DNA of 53,692 bases, taken from positions 86,465 through 140,156 of the forward strand of contig JAWAAW010000001.1 of the NCBI GenBank assembly GCA_038884975.1. Reading direction: 5' to 3'. Below are positions 15,785 through 25,706 of this stretch, in pieces (position 1 is the stretch's first letter; each line of letters opens with the position of its first letter). This stretch comes from Candidatus Woesearchaeota archaeon. GTDB taxonomy: Archaea; Nanobdellota; Nanobdellia; Woesearchaeales; ARS49. A program made the translations under genes and the position numbers. Below the pieces are notes generated by a model. The model worked only from the letters and a program-made list of their open reading frames with translations, was not told the DNA's origin and made no database searches.

Positions 15785-16588
15785 TTACTTGGCGGGCTTC
15801 ATATTCTTCCAGGCAGTGTCAAACAAGTTTTCAAGCGCGCTCGCGAAGAACGGCGTGTTGACCCAGATTCCAACATCATAAGTCGGATGGACTTCCTTGT
15901 CGTCCAGGATCATGAACACAATGTCCTTGCCGTCAACAACGCAGAACCTTGCCTTTGAGTCCGTATGCCTTACTTCAGCAACCTCTGACACTTCCTTCAG
16001 CGCTTCCCTTGTTTCCTTTGTTATTGGTGCTGCAATGCGGACCTTTACGCCCTTGCGCTTGAGTTTTTCAAATACGGGCTTAAGCCCCTCAACCTTTCGC
16101 AGAAAACCCTGTGATGTTGTCATTATTGTAACGCTCTTTTCTGCATTCCTGATTGTCAGCTCGAGATGTGAATAAAGATTGTGTCTTCCACGCAATGAAC
16201 CAGAAAGGTCTGCAGGCTCAACAAGCTCAACTCCCTGCGTGTGCAGAAGGTTAAGCTCATTCAGCACATCTGTTGACTTGAGCTGTTCAAGGCGCTTGAC
16301 ACGCTCTTCAGCTTCTTCCTTCATATTTTTCTTGACGCGCTCAAGAACTTCCTGAGGCGGAACAGCAATGTACTTTATAGGCTTGCCAAGTTTCATCACG
16401 ACAAACCCCTTGCGCTCCAAGGATTCCAGAACGTCATAGCTCCTTGACCGTGGAACATTTGCAATGTCAGAAAGCTCACCTGCTGTCGCAACACCTCGCG
16501 AGAGCAACGCCGTCCAAATCTTGACCTCGTAGAGGTTCAAGGAAAAATACCGACGGAGCTTGCTCAAAAATTCCTCTTTGACAATCAT
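15785..16588 (-). CDS. TrmB-family (TrmBL2-like) DNA-binding protein, paralog 1
   Basis: LNLYEVKIW...ANVPRSRSYDVLESLERKG wHTH followed by PLD-like C-terminal domain; 267 aa. Confidence 0.9.
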   Translation of the reverse strand: MIVKEEFLSKLRRYFSLNLYEVKIWTALLSRGVATAGELSDIANVPRSRSYDVLESLERKGFVVMKLGKPIKYIAVPPQEVLERVKKNMKEEAEERVKRLEQLKSTDVLNELNLLHTQGVELVEPADLSGSLRGRHNLYSHLELTIRNAEKSVTIMTTSQGFLRKVEGLKPVFEKLKRKGVKVRIAAPITKETREALKEVSEVAEVRHTDSKARFCVVDGKDIVFMILDDKEVHPTYDVGIWVNTPFFASALENLFDTAWKNMKPAK

Positions 16589-16750: not shown

Positions 16751-17794
16751 CTAGAACATCTTGTATCTCAGTATTGCGCCAATGCCACCAAGACCATGCA
16801 AACGCTTTCCACCTTCGTGCTCTGTTGATATAATCCACACCTTTCCTTTCGTGCGGTCAACTGACTTCATTATCATGTCGAGCTCTGCGAACTTGTTTTC
16901 TTCCCTTAGTTTCTGGACAAGCCGGTCTGTGACAAGAAGATGGTCAACAGCCCCTGCCTCTGCTGCCTGCATTGTCTCAATCATACCATAAGCAGCATTG
17001 CCTGCCTTTGCAATCGCGTGAAAAAGTTCCTCAACAATTGCCATTTCCCTGCTCACTCTTTCGAGGCGCAATGCTTCCTGCGTTTCCTTCCTCTTCAAAA
17101 CTTCTGCGATTGCTGTTTCATCAACGCCAGAACAAGTTGCCTGGATGATTTTTTTCTTGAGTTCCTGGTTTGCCAGCACCTTGCAAAGCTCTTCCTTCCA
17201 GAAAGCAGGGCTTGCAAGAATTATCTTGTCAAGCTCAAACCGCCGGTCATACTCCTCCAATTGCTTTATTATCTCTCCGTAAAATGTTTCCTTGACCTTC
17301 TCAGGAATTGCTTTTTTTGCCACCTTTCCCCTTATTGTCGTGAGCATTTCATAGCCGTCGCGCGAAAGCTTTGCGAACAATGCTTCCTCGCGGTCAAAAA
17401 CGCAAATAATGATTTTCGGCGGCTTTACAGAGGTTGCCTCCTTAAGATAATCCAGCTGGTACTTCAGCCATTCCTTCTTGATGATTGAAATCGTGCTTCC
17501 AACCTCTATTGAGAATGTATGATAGCTGCCGTGAGGAACATCTTCAGGACCCTCTGTTACCTTTCCAGAAATCCTTAATTCTGTTGCAGTAAACTCAATC
17601 TTTTCAACCTGTATTGCAAGAAAAACCTTTTTCCTCTCGGCAGCGGCCTCTTCTGTTGCCTTTATTTTCCTTAAAGTCTTTCCCTTGACAATATCGCCTT
17701 TGTCGATGATGTTGTTTAGAAACCACAAGTCATCAGGATTCTCAACTAACACTTTTGCCTCTCCCTGCTTAAGCTTCAATGCAAGCTGCTTCAT
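16751..17794 (-). CDS. pelA: Pelota (Dom34) mRNA surveillance protein
   Basis: ENPDDLWFL, GSYHT, C-terminal EHEGGKRLHGLGGIGAILRY. Confidence 0.95.
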   Translation of the reverse strand: MKQLALKLKQGEAKVLVENPDDLWFLNNIIDKGDIVKGKTLRKIKATEEAAAERKKVFLAIQVEKIEFTATELRISGKVTEGPEDVPHGSYHTFSIEVGSTISIIKKEWLKYQLDYLKEATSVKPPKIIICVFDREEALFAKLSRDGYEMLTTIRGKVAKKAIPEKVKETFYGEIIKQLEEYDRRFELDKIILASPAFWKEELCKVLANQELKKKIIQATCSGVDETAIAEVLKRKETQEALRLERVSREMAIVEELFHAIAKAGNAAYGMIETMQAAEAGAVDHLLVTDRLVQKLREENKFAELDMIMKSVDRTKGKVWIISTEHEGGKRLHGLGGIGAILRYKMF

Positions 17795-17818
17795 AAACAT
17801 ACAAGAACAAGAATCAAT

Positions 17819-18451
17819 TTAATAATCCTCTTGTCTTATCACGCCATAGCCATAAAGCGGATATGGAGACCTCCTTGTGCCATACGGTTCATAATAAGGG
17901 TGCTTAGCCCTTGCGCGCTGCAGGTTAAACTTGTTGAAATCATCAGACTCAAAGAAATGATACCTGTACTTCCCAATCTTTCTTGATTCCTCCAAATGGT
18001 CATAATCAGTAAAATCAACGACCTCCCAACGGTCAAAAGCGTTGGTAACTGCAAACGCATTATAGTCCTTCAAGGTATAACATGCCCAAGCATCATAACC
18101 ATCATCAACGTCATCACGGTCAAGGGCATCATAAGGGTCTTCATCAACAATTCTCAACTGGTCAGCACGACGCAAGCGCTTAAGGTCATCCCTGTCAGCA
18201 CCCCCTGAATCAAGAACATCATACTTGTCAAAACTCCCTGCACGAGCAAAACTATTGTAATCACCCAAGGAAATGCAGTTGTACTTGCGGAAATCACCAA
18301 TTTCGTCAGGATCAACACCGCTAAAAGGGTGGCTTAATGCATAATTGACATTGTCCCTGTAATCAATCTCGTCAGAAAAATAAAAAACCTTTGCATAAGC
18401 TGAATCAAGCGCAACAAGTGCCACAATAAAAGCAAACAGAATCCTTTTCAT
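17819..18451 (-). CDS. Secreted Asp/Tyr-rich protein with internal duplication
   Basis: Signal peptide MKRILFAFIVALVALDSAYA; repeat CxxLxDYNxFA....FD..(D/E)V(L/V)D occurs twice. Confidence 0.7.
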   Translation of the reverse strand: MKRILFAFIVALVALDSAYAKVFYFSDEIDYRDNVNYALSHPFSGVDPDEIGDFRKYNCISLGDYNSFARAGSFDKYDVLDSGGADRDDLKRLRRADQLRIVDEDPYDALDRDDVDDGYDAWACYTLKDYNAFAVTNAFDRWEVVDFTDYDHLEESRKIGKYRYHFFESDDFNKFNLQRARAKHPYYEPYGTRRSPYPLYGYGVIRQEDY

Positions 18452-18453
18452 CG

Positions 18454-18966
18454 TCAATAATACCCATAAGGAATATAACCTGAATACCTTCCAATACGCG
18501 AATACCTGTACGGGTCATAATAAGGGCTTGTGTAGCCATACGAATAATAATCGCTGAACGGCCTGTAATCATATCCATAATTTGTGCCAACATCATAGTA
18601 TGGATAACGATAATCAATGCCGTCATAATAATATCTCACGTATGGATAACTGTAACCAGAATCGTAACGCCTGCTCACGCTCTCTGACTCTGACTTCCTT
18701 GCAAACTCATAAGTCCTTGACCTGCCATAATCATAATGATCAGTGGCATACCTGTATCTGCCTGACCTACCTGAAGATGAGTAATGCTCACTCTCTGACT
18801 CGCTAATCCTAACACTCTCAGAATTTCTTGAATAAGAATAGTCGCTTGAAAAAGCGTCATCATAGAGCGGCACGTCGTAATAATCGTATGCGTAAAAGTG
18901 CGCTGAAACGCTGAACGAGGCAAGAACCAATGCAACAATCACTGCGATAATGCTTGTATTTTTCAT
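18454..18966 (-). CDS. Secreted Tyr-rich low-complexity protein
   Basis: Signal peptide MKNTSIIAVIVALVLASFSVSA; about 40 Tyr in about 148 mature residues; G-rich RBS. Confidence 0.7.
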   Translation of the reverse strand: MKNTSIIAVIVALVLASFSVSAHFYAYDYYDVPLYDDAFSSDYSYSRNSESVRISESESEHYSSSGRSGRYRYATDHYDYGRSRTYEFARKSESESVSRRYDSGYSYPYVRYYYDGIDYRYPYYDVGTNYGYDYRPFSDYYSYGYTSPYYDPYRYSRIGRYSGYIPYGYY

Positions 18967-18978
18967 ACCAACCCCCAC

Positions 18979-18997: not shown

Positions 18998-19082
18998 AAG
19001 GTTGCTTAAAAAGGTTGCGGAAGAGGACGACAATACATTTATATATTTACGAATTTGCTTTCAGCTAAAAGAAGGTGACAAC

Positions 19083-20246
19083 TTGAGAAGACAAGGACAG
19101 GCAACAGGCGCGGCAGCAGCAACACTCATCGGCATCATTACGCTGCTCCTGATTTTTTACATACTCTTCCTGCCACCAGAAGAAAGAAAGGAACTGCTGA
19201 AAGAAGAAGCATTGCCTCCGGGAATAATCCCTGAAGGCGGCGAAATAATATTCAAAGCAGCACCAGGAAGACTCACATATGTCGGACAAACAGAATTTGA
19301 GCACGTCCTACCAAACATAATGCTAACAGAAGAAAGGCAGGCAAAAATACTTGCAGAAGCACCACCATTCACAATAAAAAAAGGGTGGTTCAAGAAACAA
19401 TTCAAGAACGTCACATTCTACCTTTCTGACCTTGAGACTGTTGACAATGTCTTCCTGAGCTTCCAAGCACCAGTGCGCAGGGGCAGGCTGAAAATAGTTT
19501 TCAATGGCGAACCAATATTTGAGGGCAACGTGAATGTACAAAACCCCAAGCCAGTGCCCATCCCAAAAAGCCTCTTGAAACTTGAAAACAGCGTTGACTT
19601 CCAAGTGTGGGGCTTTGGGCTAATATTCTCAAGGCAGTATAACCTTGAGGACGTAAAAATCATTGGCGAAATAATTGACGTGAAAAAGCAACAGGCAGCA
19701 AACGCATTCGGCATACCTGAGCTCGAGCACGAAAACATTGAGTCAGCGTATCTTGCATTTTTCCCAATATGCGACCAGAATGCAATCGGAACGCTTGAAA
19801 TAATGCTTAACAACAAAATAATTTATTCAGCAGTGCCTGTCTGCGACAGCCCTGCGCGTGAAGACCTTTTCAAGGAAGACTTTGTTGCAGGCAAGAACAC
19901 TCTTGGCTTTAGGCTTAAGTCAGGAACAGCACGAATAGAACAAATAAAGATAAAGACATTTGTCAAGCCAACAAAAGGATGGAGCGACTTCTTCTTCCTC
20001 AAACCAGAAGTCTACCATGCAATCATAACAGGAAAAGCGCACGCAATACTTGAGATTGAGTTTGTTGATGACGGAAAACTCAAGGAAGCCGCAACAAACC
20101 TCAATGGAAGGCTTGACGTGCTCTCGCAAAGAGACCCCAAGTACGTGCGCGACATTTCAGAAGTCGTGAGGGACGGCAACAACTTCATCGGCATAGAGCC
20201 AGGCGGCGACATAAACATAATGCGCCTGGCAGTGCGGGTGGAGTAA
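19083..20246 (+). CDS. Membrane-anchored beta-sandwich protein with class III-like signal peptide
   Basis: TTG start after AAGGTGA; MRRQG/QATGAAAATLIGIITLLLIFYILFLPP; repeated G.L.I..N...I and (G).N...F motifs. Confidence 0.75.
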   Translation: MRRQGQATGAAAATLIGIITLLLIFYILFLPPEERKELLKEEALPPGIIPEGGEIIFKAAPGRLTYVGQTEFEHVLPNIMLTEERQAKILAEAPPFTIKKGWFKKQFKNVTFYLSDLETVDNVFLSFQAPVRRGRLKIVFNGEPIFEGNVNVQNPKPVPIPKSLLKLENSVDFQVWGFGLIFSRQYNLEDVKIIGEIIDVKKQQAANAFGIPELEHENIESAYLAFFPICDQNAIGTLEIMLNNKIIYSAVPVCDSPAREDLFKEDFVAGKNTLGFRLKSGTARIEQIKIKTFVKPTKGWSDFFFLKPEVYHAIITGKAHAILEIEFVDDGKLKEAATNLNGRLDVLSQRDPKYVRDISEVVRDGNNFIGIEPGGDINIMRLAVRVE

Positions 20247-20248
20247 GC

Positions 20249-21781
20249 ATGGTTGCAGAAGCAGAAACTGCAAAAATCAAGGGTCCTACGGGATTTTTCG
20301 TGCTAGCATGCATAGTGCACGCTTTTGACATTCTCACGCGTTACGGAACAACACCTTTTACGATAGGCACAAACCCAGGCAACCCAATAATGTGGGTTGT
20401 GTTCTTCTTTTTTTACAGCATACTTTGGCTGATAGCATCAAAGGACGAATCACTCAAGCAGCTCGGCCAAAAAACACTTCTCGTGTGCGGAATCATTGCG
20501 TACATCTGGGGACCGTTATGGAGCATCATTCCCGGATACCTACCAGCACTCAAATACGTCAGTGCACTAATGCTCCTCATTGCCCCATTCTGGATTCTGG
20601 TGATTCTCTTCGGCACCGGAGCATTCCCAAGATTATCCCTTGTTTACTCAATCATCTGGCTTGGAATAATCACGTTTGCACTCTTCCCGCAAATACAAAC
20701 ATACTCAGAAGAACATGGATACCCGTTGCCAAACGCACTCAATCCAAAACTTGTTTTGCAATATGGAACAGAAAAAACAATTGAAGCAGCAAAAAACGCA
20801 TACGCATACCTTACAGGAATACAAAAAAAAGCAGTTGGCGAAGTAGAGCGTGCAATAAAAATGGCAAGTGGAGACTATTACACTGGCGAAGTTGACCAAG
20901 GCGCCAAAAAAAAGCTTGGAGTCTACCTTGAGAACTTCAGGACAGCAGAAAAAACATTCTACACAAACGCACCAGTCATTGCTTATGCCACGATGAAAGC
21001 AGAGACCCTTGAACGCGAACTGCCAATCCACATCGCCTGCGATACTGACAAGGGAATAAGCGCAAGCTCAATAAGACCAAAAGACTCATTCACAGTCCTC
21101 ACAACGGACCAATACGACATTGACTGCATTTGGAACCCGGGCACGCTAAATGCTGGCTTTCACAACCTGCGACTAATGGCAGAATTTGAGTTCTCAACAA
21201 GAGCATACCTAAAGACATATATGATGGACAGGGACAGATTGAGGGAATACAGAAAGCAAAACAAGGACCCGCTTGAAAACATACCCGACAAAAACCCAAT
21301 TGCTGTTTATACATCAGGACCTGTGCGAATAGGGATGGGAATCGGCCAGCAACCAATAGCAGTTGGAAGCGCAGGAGAATCACTACCAAGCATAGGAATA
21401 ACCCTTGAAAATGCATGGGAAGGAAAAATCATAGACATAATGGGAGTATTCTTCATCGTTCCTGAAGGAATTTCAATCCCGCATATAGAAGGTGTTGACA
21501 TTGTACAATCCAGCTGCAATGCTCTTCCTGAAGAAGAGCGCACTGCCTGCGATGACAACCTCGTAAACGTTTACTCACTCACTCCTGACGAGCTTAAAAA
21601 AGAATCTTACAAGAACCTAACCATCAAGACATTCAGGATCCCGCTTGAAATAACCAGCCCTGAGAAAGTGCTCGGCAATGCACCAATGAGCGTGCAAAAC
21701 TTCAAGGCAAGCGTGCAATACAGGTACCTGATAGAGCGCACCACCCCTGCAATAATAAAGGAGGTCCAACCAACAGAATGA
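20249..21781 (+). CDS. Polytopic membrane protein with large extracellular beta-sandwich C-terminus
   Basis: About 5 N-terminal TM segments, then a soluble region whose strand pattern parallels the downstream lipoproteins. Confidence 0.75.
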   Translation: MVAEAETAKIKGPTGFFVLACIVHAFDILTRYGTTPFTIGTNPGNPIMWVVFFFFYSILWLIASKDESLKQLGQKTLLVCGIIAYIWGPLWSIIPGYLPALKYVSALMLLIAPFWILVILFGTGAFPRLSLVYSIIWLGIITFALFPQIQTYSEEHGYPLPNALNPKLVLQYGTEKTIEAAKNAYAYLTGIQKKAVGEVERAIKMASGDYYTGEVDQGAKKKLGVYLENFRTAEKTFYTNAPVIAYATMKAETLERELPIHIACDTDKGISASSIRPKDSFTVLTTDQYDIDCIWNPGTLNAGFHNLRLMAEFEFSTRAYLKTYMMDRDRLREYRKQNKDPLENIPDKNPIAVYTSGPVRIGMGIGQQPIAVGSAGESLPSIGITLENAWEGKIIDIMGVFFIVPEGISIPHIEGVDIVQSSCNALPEEERTACDDNLVNVYSLTPDELKKESYKNLTIKTFRIPLEITSPEKVLGNAPMSVQNFKASVQYRYLIERTTPAIIKEVQPTE

Positions 21782-22698
21782 AAAAAACAATTGCGCTCGT
21801 TTTATTTCTTGTATTGCTTTCTGGTTGCCAGACTGGATTCTTGCAAAGAAAGGAAACAATGCATTTGCCAGAAGTAAAGACAGGCGTCCAAGGCCTTGAA
21901 TTGTACCTCACACCAGGAAGCCCACCGCCAGAAGTATATGAGAACAGCAAATTCAATGCGTTATTCGTGCTTTCCAACCTCGGCGCCCACGATATCGAAG
22001 ACGGAGTCTACTCAGTAAGTTATGAACCACAATACGTTTATCTCGCAAAACAACAAGCACAAGGCAGGTTTGCAGTGCGCGGAAAATCAGAATTCAACCC
22101 CCAAGGACAGGAAAGGCTCGTGAACCTCAATTTTGACACAAAACCCTTAGGGCAACAAATACAAGCATACACAACAACAATCACTTTCAACGCCTGCTAT
22201 CCCTACCAAACAAACGCCCTAATAATTGTTTGCATTGACACAGACATCACAGGCAAAAAACCAGGCAAGGTCTGCATTCCAAAAACACAAGCATTACCAG
22301 GAGGCCAAGGTGCACCTGTAGCAGTAACAATGATTGAGCAGCGAATGCTTCAATCAGACATGCCGGAAAGAGTTGTTCCTGAATTCGTACTAACAATCAG
22401 GAACCTGGGCAAAGGACAAGTAATGAAGTCAGAACTTTATCCAGAAGCCTGCTCAGGAAAACCGGTTGGCGAAGAAAACTGGAACGTTGTATCAGTTAGC
22501 GCAGCACTATCTGACGAAACATTGAACTGCACTCCAGAAAAAATAAAACTGAAATTGGGTGGCGACACAAAAATTGTGTGCAGGCTTGAAAAAGGAATTA
22601 ATTCAAGGCTTGGTACTTACACAGCACCATTGTCTGTAACACTTGATTATGGATACATGACTAGCATTTCAACACAAGTAAAGATAATGAAACAATGA
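21778..22698 (+). CDS. Putative lipoprotein, GGQGAP family paralog 1
   Basis: Lipobox LLSG/C; ACYPYQT...VCID; GGQGAPVAV; LDYGY; ATGA overlap with the upstream gene. Confidence 0.8.
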   Translation: MKKTIALVLFLVLLSGCQTGFLQRKETMHLPEVKTGVQGLELYLTPGSPPPEVYENSKFNALFVLSNLGAHDIEDGVYSVSYEPQYVYLAKQQAQGRFAVRGKSEFNPQGQERLVNLNFDTKPLGQQIQAYTTTITFNACYPYQTNALIIVCIDTDITGKKPGKVCIPKTQALPGGQGAPVAVTMIEQRMLQSDMPERVVPEFVLTIRNLGKGQVMKSELYPEACSGKPVGEENWNVVSVSAALSDETLNCTPEKIKLKLGGDTKIVCRLEKGINSRLGTYTAPLSVTLDYGYMTSISTQVKIMKQ

Positions 22699-22741
22699 CG
22701 ACCAAAGATTTAAATAATTCAAAAATCGTGCTTTAACAACA

Positions 22742-23668
22742 ATGCGAAAGACACTAATTGTGTTGGGAATATTGCTCATAATAATTCTTGCTGGCTGCAA
22801 AAGGGCAGCGCCACAGGAAAGACCCGCTTTTGTAGAGGAATTCAGGCGTGGGACCCAAGGACTTGTGATGCGCTTCACACCAAATATGCCACCAACAAAA
22901 CTCTTTTCAGGCGAGCAATTAGCCATTGTGCTTGAGGTTGAGAACAGAGGAACATATCCTGTAGGCGGGCCAGGAGACAGGATTTACATCTCAGGATTTG
23001 ACCCAAACATCATAAGCGGAATCTCACCGGCAGGAGAACCAATACCGCCCCTTGAAGGGAGAACACAATTCATCAGCCAAGGGGGCTTTGACACAGTCAC
23101 GTTCAAGGCAAACACACGAATACTGCAGGACAGATATCCTGTCACGCTCCTCGCAACCGCATGTTATGAATACAAGACTGTTGCAACAGGAAACGTATGC
23201 ATCGACCCCAACCCTTTTGCACCTGCAATAACACAAAAGGTCTGCGTGCCACAGAACGTCGGCCTTGCAGGAGGACAAGGAGCACCAATCGCAGTAAGCC
23301 TGATAGAAGTTGATGCAAGCCCCGGCAAAACAAGATTCAAGATACACGTTTCAAATGTTGGCGGAGGACAAGTTTTCAGGTCAGGGAGCGATACGCTCAA
23401 CAGGTGCGGTCCGGGAGGAATGCTGGGCTTTGACGAAATTGATTATGTGGAACTTGAAGACGTCATCGTCGGTGGCGTTTCAATAAGAGGAAGCTGCAAG
23501 CCCCTAGACATGGGACACATAAGACTGACAAACAGGCAAGGGGTTGTGTATTGCGAATTCGCAAGCCCAAGAGGCGACGCGGCATACGTGACACCAATGA
23601 CTGTCGTGCTAAGGTATGGCTACAGAGACTCATTAATACACAATATGGAAATCCTGCCAAGCATTTGA
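22742..23668 (+). CDS. Putative lipoprotein, GGQGAP family paralog 2
   Basis: Lipobox ILAG/C; ACYEYKT...VCID; GGQGAPIAV; LRYGY. Confidence 0.8.
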   Translation: MRKTLIVLGILLIIILAGCKRAAPQERPAFVEEFRRGTQGLVMRFTPNMPPTKLFSGEQLAIVLEVENRGTYPVGGPGDRIYISGFDPNIISGISPAGEPIPPLEGRTQFISQGGFDTVTFKANTRILQDRYPVTLLATACYEYKTVATGNVCIDPNPFAPAITQKVCVPQNVGLAGGQGAPIAVSLIEVDASPGKTRFKIHVSNVGGGQVFRSGSDTLNRCGPGGMLGFDEIDYVELEDVIVGGVSIRGSCKPLDMGHIRLTNRQGVVYCEFASPRGDAAYVTPMTVVLRYGYRDSLIHNMEILPSI

Positions 23669-23718
23669 TTACACCACACAGAAATGTTTATATATCAATT
23701 ATTCTCGGTCAGTGAATT

Positions 23719-24660
23719 ATGCGAAAGATAATTACTGTAATTGTTCTCTTAGTAATGATCACTGCCTGTGCGGGCGCAGGGAAGAAAGGAGAAAAAGTAG
23801 ACTTGGGAGCACCGTTTGTTGGAGGAACTGCAGGAGTTGTTGCGGAATTCATAGACTTTCGCAGTGAAGTTTTTGACGGTGGAAGAGACCCCTTTGACGT
23901 TGTCGTAAAACTTGAAAACAAAGGAGAAGCAACAGCAAGGCCTGAGCGCGTGCGCGTAAAGCTCTCAGGCATAAACCCTGCAGAGTTCGGCAAGCTTGAA
24001 GAAGACCTAAAGAAAAGCCCCACAGACGAATTGTTTGCAGTAACGAAGGACCCACAAGGAAACATTATTCCAGGAGGCCAGACGACTGTTGAATTCATTG
24101 GACTCAACCATTTTGCGCCAATAACAGGAGCGCAAGTAACGCTGCCTTTAAGAGCAGACATCTGTTACACGTACTCTACAAAAGCAGTAAGCAAGCTCTG
24201 CGTGCGCGAAAACCTGCTTGCCCCAGAACCAGGCGGAATATGCGAGATAAACGAAGACAAGCCAGTTGTGAACGCAGGAGCGCCAGTGCAAATGGGTGCA
24301 GTAAAGGAAACAGCACGTGGAAAGGACAAAATAAGCTTCAGCTTTGAAATCACGAACGTCGGCACTGGAAACCTGTTCAAGCAAGGAAGCACATGCGACC
24401 GCAGCACAAGGGCAAACGAGAATGTGATTTATTTGGTTGTTGACACAAAAATGCCAGGACTACAATGCACAGGACTTACAACAACCGGAACAAAAGCAGA
24501 GGGATACGTGACATTATACGACAAGAAAAAAACAGTAACTTGCACGCAAACAATAACCACAAGCACAGACTACGAACAACAAATAAGCATGGAAGCAACA
24601 TACGATTATGAGGAATACAAGCAAACACAAATAACAGTCAAGAGTTCTGGGGAAGAATAA
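23719..24660 (+). CDS. Putative lipoprotein, GGQGAP family paralog 3
   Basis: Lipobox ITA/C; ICYTYST...LCVR; NAGAPVQM; TYDY; own TATA (TTTATATA, about 23687). Confidence 0.8.
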   Translation: MRKIITVIVLLVMITACAGAGKKGEKVDLGAPFVGGTAGVVAEFIDFRSEVFDGGRDPFDVVVKLENKGEATARPERVRVKLSGINPAEFGKLEEDLKKSPTDELFAVTKDPQGNIIPGGQTTVEFIGLNHFAPITGAQVTLPLRADICYTYSTKAVSKLCVRENLLAPEPGGICEINEDKPVVNAGAPVQMGAVKETARGKDKISFSFEITNVGTGNLFKQGSTCDRSTRANENVIYLVVDTKMPGLQCTGLTTTGTKAEGYVTLYDKKKTVTCTQTITTSTDYEQQISMEATYDYEEYKQTQITVKSSGEE

Positions 24661-24743
24661 ACCACAGCTTCTAATACAATCCAATCTAAAAAAAATTGAG
24701 AATCCAAAAATTATGCAAGGTTCCAAGGACCCAAGAACAAGTT

Positions 24744-25706
24744 TTATTTTTTAACTGCAGAAACGTGCGCAAGCAAAGCTTCCAACTGTATGAACTCATC
24801 AGCACCCTCAACCATCCTGAATTCTATCTCGCCACACTTGTCAATCAAATGAACTTTTTCCCTGTTGCCAAGGTCAAGATTCCAAACTTCTTTCTGAATC
24901 TGACGAATGATGTCCAGTCCTGAAAGGCCATACTTGAGCATTGTGTCAAGCAAAACATTCCTTGCCTTCACAAAATCACCATCCAGCGCGGTTTTTAGAA
25001 GCATTGCAACTTCCTTGGGCTGAGCCATTGAAGCCATTGAAAACACAAGCTCAGGAGTCACGGTTTCCTGCATTGCAGCACAGCTTTGCAGGATGTTTTC
25101 CAAACGCCTGCAGTCACCCTCAGAAACATCATACAATGCCTTTTTTGCTTCAGTGGTGAGCTTCAATCCTTCCTGTTTTGCAATAGAATCAATGATTTTG
25201 AATACTTCCTCCAGAGGCAAGGGCTTGAAGCGGAAAACAGCGCAACGGCTCTGAATGGGATCGATAATCTTACTTGAGTAATTTGCTGCAAGAATGAAAC
25301 GGCAAGTGCTTGTGTAATTCTCCATTGTCCTCCTGAGCGCCTGCTGGGCTTCCTTTGTCAAGGCATCACATTCATCAAGAAAAATAATCTTGAAAGGTAC
25401 ATTGCCTATTGCCTTTGTCCTTGCAAAATCCTTCACCTTGACCCTGACAACATCAATGCCGCGTTCATCAGATGCATTAAGCTCAAGAAAGTTCTGGCGC
25501 CAGTTTTCGCCAAACAATTCCCTTGCAACAACCAATGCCAAAGTGCTCTTTCCAACACCCGGCGGTCCGGCAAAAAGCAAGTGCGGAATGTTCTTCTGCT
25601 CAACAAAAGACTTCACCTTGCTTACGACTGCATCCTGACCCTTGACCTCGCTGAAAGTCTTGGGGCGGTATTTCTCTGTCCAGATTACAGAATTTTCCTC
25701 AGCCAT
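24744..25706 (-). CDS. rfcS: Replication factor C small subunit
   Basis: WTEKYRP, GPPGVGKS, ELNASDERG, LDECD, IQSRC. Confidence 0.97.
   Translation of the reverse strand: MAEENSVIWTEKYRPKTFSEVKGQDAVVSKVKSFVEQKNIPHLLFAGPPGVGKSTLALVVARELFGENWRQNFLELNASDERGIDVVRVKVKDFARTKAIGNVPFKIIFLDECDALTKEAQQALRRTMENYTSTCRFILAANYSSKIIDPIQSRCAVFRFKPLPLEEVFKIIDSIAKQEGLKLTTEAKKALYDVSEGDCRRLENILQSCAAMQETVTPELVFSMASMAQPKEVAMLLKTALDGDFVKARNVLLDTMLKYGLSGLDIIRQIQKEVWNLDLGNREKVHLIDKCGEIEFRMVEGADEFIQLEALLAHVSAVKK

Follow-up and report, generated by a model that had tools for sequence, protein, structure and literature searches.

What do five adjacent genes contribute to a reduced archaeon when none of their products can be placed in a characterized family? 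The genes in question, G1 to G5, lie at positions 19083-24660 of a 53,692-nucleotide stretch of DNA (GenBank assembly GCA_038884975.1, contig JAWAAW010000001.1, positions 86,465 to 140,156 of the forward strand), which we call the window. An open reading frame (ORF) check found five neighbors on the plus strand, with coordinates that agree with those of a first-pass annotation made from the sequence. The source organism is a hot-spring Woesearchaeal (DPANN) archaeon and is reduced, as that annotation had supposed: the genome spans 838 kb in 17 contigs with a completeness score of 99.95%, and homologues of the cassette proteins came solely from metagenome-assembled genomes of Woesearchaeota/Nanoarchaeia, where they are annotated as hypothetical. 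The first functional handle on the cassette, absent from the first-pass annotation, is that relatives of the membrane protein G2 carry murein hydrolase domains. We consider the chances about even that the cassette encodes a hetero-oligomeric surface complex, specific to the lineage, that mediates contact between cells and would breach bacterial walls in most lineages.

G1 (19083-20246, 387 amino acids) has a prepilin-like (class III) N terminus followed by an extracellular, all-beta-looking part of ~340 amino acids. G2 (20249-21781, 510 amino acids) is a membrane protein with a predicted double beta-sandwich ectodomain and is a short, hydrolase-less form of its family. The remaining genes encode putative lipoproteins: G3 (21778-22698, 306 amino acids), the predicted partner of the G2 ectodomain; G4 (22742-23668, 308 amino acids), with a predicted fold of two immunoglobulin (Ig)-like sandwiches; and G5 (23719-24660, 313 amino acids), the paralogue that diverges most. 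The first three genes are tightly coupled, as first annotated, with 2 nucleotides between G1 and G2 and a 4-nucleotide overlap of the G2 stop and the G3 start (-4 nucleotides); 43 nucleotides separate G3 from G4, and 50 separate G4 from G5.

Membership of the G2 family rests on full-length homology over a core running from GDYYTGxVD to LGxAPIAVQNFK, which G2 shares with 41 homologues (E up to 4e-92). A profile search of a 50% library holding 1.84 billion representatives returned 1417 clusters at E up to 1e-3, of which 874 were at up to 1e-30. The best 150 of the 1417 clusters comprised 27 short proteins of at most 560 amino acids, which were not scanned for domains, and 123 longer ones, of which 116 were scanned with Pfam and 7 were not. 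The long homologues have a C-terminal extension beyond the conserved core, and in the locus G2 proteins described below the hydrolase domains always lie C-terminal of that core. Among the 116 long representatives, we detected SLT in 42, Peptidase_M23 in four, Amidase_2 and NlpC/P60 in two each, and Amidase_3, Glucosaminidase and Lysozyme_like in one each. No other enzyme class appeared in these 116 proteins; the sole further matches were to fn3, PKD and Pur_ac_phosph_N domains and to one DUF4112.

The same kinds of fusion occur in G2 proteins taken from related loci. We collected 45 Woesearchaeota loci, one genome per species, and scanned 44 of their G2 proteins, leaving out L005, which is near-identical to L004. 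Twelve of the 44 carried a hydrolase domain over the Pfam cut-off (SLT in nine, NlpC/P60 in two, Amidase_2 in one). Two further matches, to SLT and Glucosaminidase, were sub-threshold, and four other proteins had Ig-like tails of the fn3/PKD type, all under the cut-offs. None of the 16 scanned short-form G2 proteins had a Pfam hydrolase domain. Judged by these family matches, the C-terminal murein hydrolase of G2 relatives is of at least six interchangeable kinds.

Because relatives carry such domains (12/44 loci; SLT in 42/116 long representatives) and the G2 of the window has none, we regard the latter as belonging to the same core family but lacking the hydrolase. We built a quick maximum-likelihood tree of the G2 core, for which a more careful search is unfinished, from 43 rows after dropping L020, L034 and L046 (fewer than 300 core residues). 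All 16 short forms fell on one side of a single branch (Shimodaira-Hasegawa-like approximate likelihood ratio test support, 99). On this sequence tree, the G2 of the window is within a single hydrolase-less clade, in which G4 homologues reach 87% identity and G2 homologues 70%. To account for the tree, the hydrolase label must have changed four times or more, and the sister loci L022 and L019 differ in their G2 hydrolase (Amidase_2 and NlpC/P60, respectively). We found no Mur-ligase domain in four of five hydrolase-bearing genomes and one lone match in the fifth, with the caveat that the completeness of these genomes is not established. As the organisms thus appear to make no murein, the target should be the wall of another cell.

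The cassette is widely conserved, which the first-pass annotation had named as a check on its proposal. The order G1-G2-G3-G4-G5 on one strand was found in 29 of the 45 loci; 13 more are truncated at the ends of contigs but fit this arrangement, and three deviate. Among the latter, L007 has a 10-N gap and is without G4 and G5, and the sisters L019 and L022 retain the G2-G3 pair alone. In these two sisters (L019:9-3659 and L022:5302-8931), G2-G3 is followed by an unrelated membrane protein of 656-665 amino acids, and in L022 the 5 kb upstream contain no G1. From gene order and spacing, the best explanation is that the five genes form one operon. Many of the cassette-bearing records, including L004, L007, L015, L017 and L021, are titled "uncultured Methanosarcinales archaeon." In the G2 tree, L004 is near-identical to L005, titled "Candidatus Nanoarchaeia"; the titles look taxonomically mislabelled.

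Beyond these loci, a lipoprotein profile had matches in 331 of the 401 genomes sampled from the phylum, which belong to a single class (six of the 331, G242, G395, G321, G359, G243 and G332, are unpublished). Matches were obtained in all 28 genomes of the organism's own family, in 245 of 249 from other families of the order, usually three per genome, and in 57 of 123 from other orders. All five genomes that we examined from other orders contained G1, then a membrane protein of 414-500 amino acids, then two lipoproteins. The membrane protein matched a local G2 hidden Markov model (HMM) weakly in three of the five (1e-8 to 1e-16), and a profile of long G2 forms, A5, found nothing in the same five genomes. 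Its transmembrane part is down to 1-3 hydrophobic segments by a crude hydropathy scan. G1 is the component best conserved across the class, with E values of 1e-63 to 1e-78 in these five genomes. Given the breadth of this conservation across orders, the module is an ancient part of the core genome of the class, passed on by vertical descent, and not a mobile island. Gene lengths across 25 loci covary (G2 with G1, rho 0.44; G2 with G3, rho 0.49), and we give this no weight because the correlations are weak and not independent. Three loci, L034, L041 and L047, combine the longest G2 (1109-1125 amino acids) with an enlarged G1 (559-565 amino acids; the L034 ORF is over-extended) and G3/G4 of up to 431 amino acids.

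As for the lipoproteins, G3, G4 and G5 are true paralogues by sequence comparison, as the first-pass annotation had held (BLASTP E of 3e-24 for G3/G4, 5e-13 for G4/G5 and 4e-8 for G3/G5). A G4-family profile matched exactly three genes in the organism's own genome, namely G3, G4 and G5. The ordered motifs that had been noted in the three proteins fall in columns that do not vary when these are aligned: G36, G39, C140, Y141, Y143, T145, A147, C152, G178, A179, P180, F203, N209, G211, G213, Y291 and Y293. Invariant cysteines are present in every protein family of the cassette. The three lipoboxes originally noted are there as well, since each protein has a hydrophobic signal followed by a sequence of the type [LVI][ASTVI][GAS]C: LLSGC in G3, ILAGC in G4 and ITAC in G5. 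The Pfam model LPAM_1 scored 17.5, 10.8 and 16.3 bits on G3, G4 and G5, under its 20-bit cut-off. Across homologues, a lipobox-like cysteine after a hydrophobic N terminus was found by pattern in 104 of 107, and by eye in the remaining three (LASC, LLGC and IAAC). The archaeal lipidation enzyme AliA (arCOG02177) occurs in DPANN archaea, according to the accessible text of PMC12462473.

Searches of Pfam and NCBIfam with all five proteins gave no match above threshold, just noise from lipoboxes, CARDB and short N-terminal signal peptides; the CARDB match (PF07705) was to G5, with E 0.058, below its gathering cut-off. Sequence-profile searches of the PDB with G4, G2 and G1 gave nothing better than E ~1. 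The view that no component falls in a characterized family holds in these three databases, and within the same searches there was no confident match to an S-layer or solute-binding family. The AlphaFold model of G4 was all-beta, with a predicted local distance difference test score (pLDDT) of 88.6 and a predicted TM-score of 0.79. G2 (pLDDT 81.7) was modeled with approximately five transmembrane helices in residues 14-155, followed by one long helix at 166-206 and, at 222-505, by an ectodomain of two beta-sandwiches in which pLDDT mostly exceeds 90; outside the membrane this model, too, is all-beta. The transmembrane part is poorly conserved, with D27 as its sole invariant residue. Foldseek comparison of the G4 and G2 models with the PDB gave generic tandem Ig-like matches (TM ~0.1-0.3). 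The nearest fold kin listed are Ig-like sandwiches of the macroglobulin (MG)/CARDB type: the MG domains of complement C3/C4/C5, bacterial alpha-2-macroglobulin, domain III of HAP2/Fsx1 and the CARDB domain of PF1109.

The first-pass annotation had suggested that the soluble half of G2 is a fourth copy of the lipoproteins on a transmembrane anchor. This claim has no backing in sequence and some in predicted architecture. Comparison of the G2 ectodomain with the lipoproteins by hhalign gave probabilities of 0.07%, 0.6% and 1.4%, and 1.3% when secondary structure was included; no G2 came up, at E up to 10, in a search with an HMM built from 106 lipoproteins; and the match of the motifs in G2 was not above chance. 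Local, global and secondary-structure-aided hhalign likewise revealed no relation between G2 and the lipoproteins, G1 and the lipoproteins, or G1 and G2. In contrast, the secondary structures of G4 and the G2 ectodomain are colinear in order and length, with a score of 197 compared to 135.8 +/- 18.5 (maximum 176) for 200 block shuffles (z 3.3). Two strands of 23-25 residues occupy equivalent places (132-154 and 282-305 in G4; 303-327 and 480-504 in G2), and the aligned sandwich spans the first to the last strand in both models. The two models also have 19 of their top 50 structural neighbors in common, over the same chain ranges, these neighbors being generic Ig-like domains. In a comparison made without direct superposition, the models thus suggest that the G2 ectodomain and G4 have in common an unusual architecture of two beta-sandwiches.

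We then asked whether the proteins might bind one another, as expected if they form the hetero-oligomeric surface apparatus that had been proposed. Prediction of G2(219-510) with G3(30-306) gave an interface score, ipSAE, of 0.76 (0.76, 0.76 and 0.80 in individual runs) compared to 0.00 for the best of three controls. The model contained 107-112 contacts, with at least 98% agreement of contacts from run to run and a partner pLDDT of at least 89. Of 157 solved complexes, 116 attain this mark, as against 2 of 215 mismatched pairs; these rates are no more than approximate here, since we used our own alignments. In the predicted interface, G2 strand 475-484, which lies in the conserved LGxAPIAVQNFK segment, pairs with G3 strand 79-86. 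As no solved look-alike was found in the searches, the score is unlikely to come from the memory of the model. Furthermore, the reduced loci L019 and L022 keep precisely the G2-G3 pair, in line with predicted binding. The controlled prediction supports binding of G2 to G3 and so supports the hetero-oligomer for this pair; it is in that part, and for that pair only, that the proposed apparatus gains ground.

G1 begins with MRRQGQATGAAAATLIGIITLLLIFYILFLPP, in which a [KR][GA]Q motif precedes a hydrophobic stretch. This arrangement was kept in 38 of 41 homologues, and the three misses are cut or over-extended ORFs. More fully, the homologues follow the pattern M..K[KR][GA]Q, small residues, a hydrophobic helix and then LFLPPxER. 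The short basic N terminus, [KR][GA] motif and hydrophobic helix of a class III signal are all found in G1 (MRRQGQATGAAAATLIGIITLLLIFYILF), and the genome encodes an A24 prepilin peptidase (PF01478, 57.4 bits, G000:C2:47865-48203). It also encodes a T2SSE ATPase (60 bits) adjoining a weak T2SSF-like gene. Phmmer found no homologues of the organism's ATPase, platform protein or peptidase among the ORFs of the 45 loci, up to 6 kb on either side of G2. Because the motif and the peptidase are present, but filament genes occur in 0/45 loci, we consider that G1 is plausibly a class III signal protein that lies outside any filament locus; to this extent the original reading of its N terminus finds support in the sequence. 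Pfam scans of 34 G1 homologues gave scattered non-significant matches alone, including CBM_35, Glyco_hydro_2_N and BcsB, and an ESM Atlas search with G1 returned only clusters of Woesearchaeota hypothetical proteins. The genome as a whole keeps a minimal type IV filament set (G000:C1:37133-41577 and G000:C2:47796-48704), made up of a 765-amino acid ATPase ORF, an adjacent 740-amino acid platform-like ORF with the weak T2SSF match, and the A24 peptidase on another contig.

The start of G1 was set by inspection of the DNA upstream. A mechanical G1 ORF opens at 19002, and the extension at 19002-19082 contains a TATA-box-like sequence, TTTATATA (19039-19046, plus strand), which lies 5' of G1 and is a putative operon promoter, as well as a ribosome-binding-like motif, GGTGA (19074-19078, plus strand), 5 nucleotides ahead of a TTG start. 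Because both elements, read directly from the sequence, sit within the extension, we argue that it is non-coding and that TTG 19083 is therefore the likely start of G1, giving a protein that opens with MRRQGQATGAAAATLIG.

Housekeeping genes flank the cassette, which lies at C1:105.5-111 kb of the genome. These are pelota (16751-17800, minus strand), adjacent in 37 of the 45 loci; the small subunit of replication factor C (RFC; 24744-25706, minus strand), adjacent in 26; and the gene for tyrosyl-tRNA synthetase. A 267-amino acid gene adjoining pelota (15785-16588, minus strand) is near the cassette in 24 of 45 loci; we took it to be a helix-turn-helix regulator from its N-terminal sequence alone, without a family search. 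Two ORFs past it, taken as phenylalanyl-tRNA synthetase subunits and not scanned, are kept in 15 and 8 loci, which indicates a stable core-genome neighborhood. Between pelota and the cassette, and divergent from the latter, two small genes with a 4-nucleotide overlap (17819-18457 and 18454-18978, both minus strand) encode secreted proteins of 212 and 174 amino acids with signal peptides. Both are extremely rich in Tyr, Asp, Ser and Arg, with YDY and RYRY runs, and their homologues sit beside the cassette in just 8 of 45 loci, which are the closest relatives.

Taken together, these data suggest a model in which the operon would encode a membrane-anchored hetero-oligomer on the outer face of the archaeal cell membrane. 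Such a location is favored by the lipobox-like cysteines of the lipoproteins, by the cysteines invariant in all families and by the combination of transmembrane helices with a beta ectodomain in the G2 model. G2 would be held by its approximately five transmembrane helices and a helical stalk, G3-G5 by lipid on the lipobox cysteine, and G1 would be held by, or released from, its prepilin-like helix. The G2 ectodomain and the three lipoproteins would form rigid double Ig-like beta-sandwiches joined edge to edge by pairing of beta-strands, as predicted for G2-G3 only. The far end of G2 would carry the exchangeable murein hydrolase in most of the family, such that the complex could dock on a bacterial wall and open it locally. 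In the organism of the window, the hydrolase-less complex may act purely as a dock or scaffold, perhaps with a partner that lacks murein. Gene order, paralogy, conservation, the hydrolase fusions of relatives, and the predicted folds and G2-G3 interface are results of the analysis, whereas lipidation, cleavage of G1, stoichiometry, contact with a host and the part played by the short form are computational inferences. A bolder version, which we offer tentatively, extends this to a class-wide machine of the Nanoarchaeia, covering Woesearchaeales as well as Pacearchaeales-type orders with two lipoproteins. According to this version, four structurally paralogous subunits (the G2 ectodomain and G3-G5) would polymerize head to tail by beta-strand augmentation into a rigid membrane stalk or ring that G1 caps or bridges, the distal, exchangeable murein-cutting "warhead" of G2 would open a bacterial partner's wall so as to allow episymbiotic contact, and the hydrolase-less clade, including this hot-spring organism, would have been re-tooled for partners without murein.

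Several observations weigh against a wall-breaching contact complex. About half of the 116 long G2 forms scanned have no hydrolase recognized by Pfam. The G2 of the window matched no Pfam family at E up to 1, and family searches of its 838-kb genome found no SLT, NlpC/P60 or Amidase_2. The ORFs of that genome that resemble any of the 123 long G2 representatives amount to G2 only, and this phmmer route was the sole cover for M23, Amidase_3 and GH73. The ipSAE is the confidence of a model working from our own alignments, not a measurement, and it concerns one predicted pair. The whole stretch at 19000-24700 was present in one public run, a DNA run labelled hot springs metagenome from which the assembly may derive; no RNA run among public sequencing runs contained the locus, and the metatranscriptome of the same study shares next to nothing with the stretch. 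Lastly, a near-universal, single-copy cassette placed in the core genome by pelota and RFC suits a housekeeping role in the envelope at least as well as one in attacking hosts.

Such a role is the main rival. On this account, which we hold to be unlikely though deserving of serious attention, the cassette would be an envelope scaffold, either the anchor or base of a surface layer or a membrane-shaping complex, with no direct part in cell contact and with hydrolases as later add-ons in some lineages. Its near-universality in the order (28/28 and 245/249 genomes), its single copy in a conserved core neighborhood of so small a genome, and the retention of all five genes, well conserved, by the hydrolase-less clade would follow naturally. 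What it accommodates poorly is that the enzymatic domains fused to G2 are exclusively murein hydrolases, drawn from at least six families, which is hard to explain for an internal scaffold in organisms without Mur ligases. In addition, no S-layer family was matched in Pfam or NCBIfam, and small proteins of ~300 amino acids anchored by lipid or transmembrane segments are atypical of lattice formers. A murein hydrolase could also belong to an autolysin complex that remodels a murein-like wall of the archaeon itself. The hydrolase domains of G2 relatives would suit that idea, which we find scarcely credible given the near-absence of Mur-ligase domains from the five hydrolase-bearing genomes (none in four, a single match in the fifth, completeness not established) and given that the window's genome has neither a hydrolase, among SLT, NlpC/P60 and Amidase_2, nor a hydrolase-bearing G2.

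Two other proposals start from the remaining components. Lipid-anchored extracellular proteins beside a polytopic membrane protein, in DPANN archaea that must import many metabolites, recall a system for nutrient capture in which substrate-binding lipoproteins feed a channel formed by the transmembrane part of G2. We regard this as very improbable, since the predicted folds are Ig-like sandwiches and not those of periplasmic binding proteins, no ABC or other transporter family was matched in Pfam or NCBIfam, and the putative channel is poorly conserved and reduced to a few hydrophobic segments in other orders. The conserved class-III-like N terminus of G1, together with the A24 peptidase and the T2SSE ATPase beside its weak T2SSF-like neighbor, would fit an accessory module of a type IV filament, with G1 as a pilin or tip adhesin built by PilB/PilC-like machinery and G2-G5 as anchoring or assembly factors. 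This, too, is improbable, if less so. The ATPase and platform genes (C1:38-40 kb) are ~65 kb from the cassette and the peptidase is on another contig, none of the 45 loci has a homologue of these genes within 6 kb, and G1 is conserved over its full 390 amino acids across orders, whereas pilin heads are generally fast-evolving. Moreover, the accessible text of PMC13705601 describes type IV filaments as widespread in the majority of archaeal phyla, with Nanobdellati and Prometheoarchaeati as exceptions.

How does the contact complex that we favor compare with known systems? VirB1-like PrgK/TraG proteins of Gram-positive conjugative type IV secretion combine a transmembrane segment with SLT and CHAP/NlpC domains and open the wall of the cell that produces them. 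The G2 family resembles them in joining a membrane anchor to modular murein hydrolases (SLT, NlpC/P60, M23) and in the proposed local opening of a wall for a cell-cell process. It differs in that the producer has no murein wall of its own, and the two are unrelated in sequence; the search of the loci for machinery genes covered the type IV filament genes of the genome. SPEARE proteins of Nanohaloarchaeota, each a single giant surface polypeptide bearing protease and nuclease domains, have been proposed as a means of breaching the envelopes of hosts. Like them, the cassette belongs to a DPANN surface, pairs adhesion-type with lytic enzyme domains and is proposed to act at host contact; unlike them, it consists of five small proteins, its enzymes are murein hydrolases only, and it comes from a different phylum. 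Archaeal proteins with class III signal peptides include pilins, archaellins and the sugar-binding "bindosome" proteins of Sulfolobus. G1 has their short basic N terminus, [KR][GA]Q and hydrophobic helix, in a genome with an A24 peptidase, but it lies outside a type IV filament locus, its 340-amino acid head is conserved across orders, and LFLPPxER follows the helix. We know of no counterpart of the LFLPPxER motif.

A close precedent is in the same lineage, and our favored reading agrees with it. Large lytic-transglycosylase proteins of Woese- and Pacearchaeota have been proposed to act on bacterial hosts by binding or degrading their walls (PMC8204110; PMC9723730), GH23 proteins are reported by Vigneron et al. 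2022 (PMC9723730), and peptidoglycan hydrolases are prominent in Nanoarchaeota (PMC12352652), as far as the accessible portions of these papers go. The published SLT/GH23 proteins are like the long G2 forms in lineage, extracellular location and SLT/GH23 domain, and the long G2 forms are probably among them. In the parts of PMC8204110 and PMC9723730 available, these proteins are described singly, without the transmembrane and double-sandwich core, the exchange of at least six hydrolase families or the four constant partner genes. The G2 of the window, having no SLT domain, is unlike them. Our literature search found no description of the cassette or its partner proteins, of the exchange of modules or of the clade of short forms; the supplementary tables of PMC8204110 (Castelle et al. 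2021; "Module 98," 51 families) may list some of the families without a function.

Few uncultured archaea are as widespread as Woesearchaeales and their relatives, whose genomes are too small to sustain an independent life. On their attachment to partners, the accessible parts of the earlier literature note only isolated "large lytic transglycosylase proteins." Our analysis probably places these lytic proteins in one conserved surface module of five genes (four in other orders), which nearly all sampled genomes of the order contain. It further indicates that the wall-cutting part can be exchanged and that a defined clade lost it a single time, and it supplies a predicted subunit interface. The cassette is thus a strong candidate for the structure that docks these archaea onto other cells. 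If so, whether a partner is a bacterium could be predicted from which hydrolase, if any, is present, and the short-form clade to which the organism of the window belongs would offer a natural comparison.

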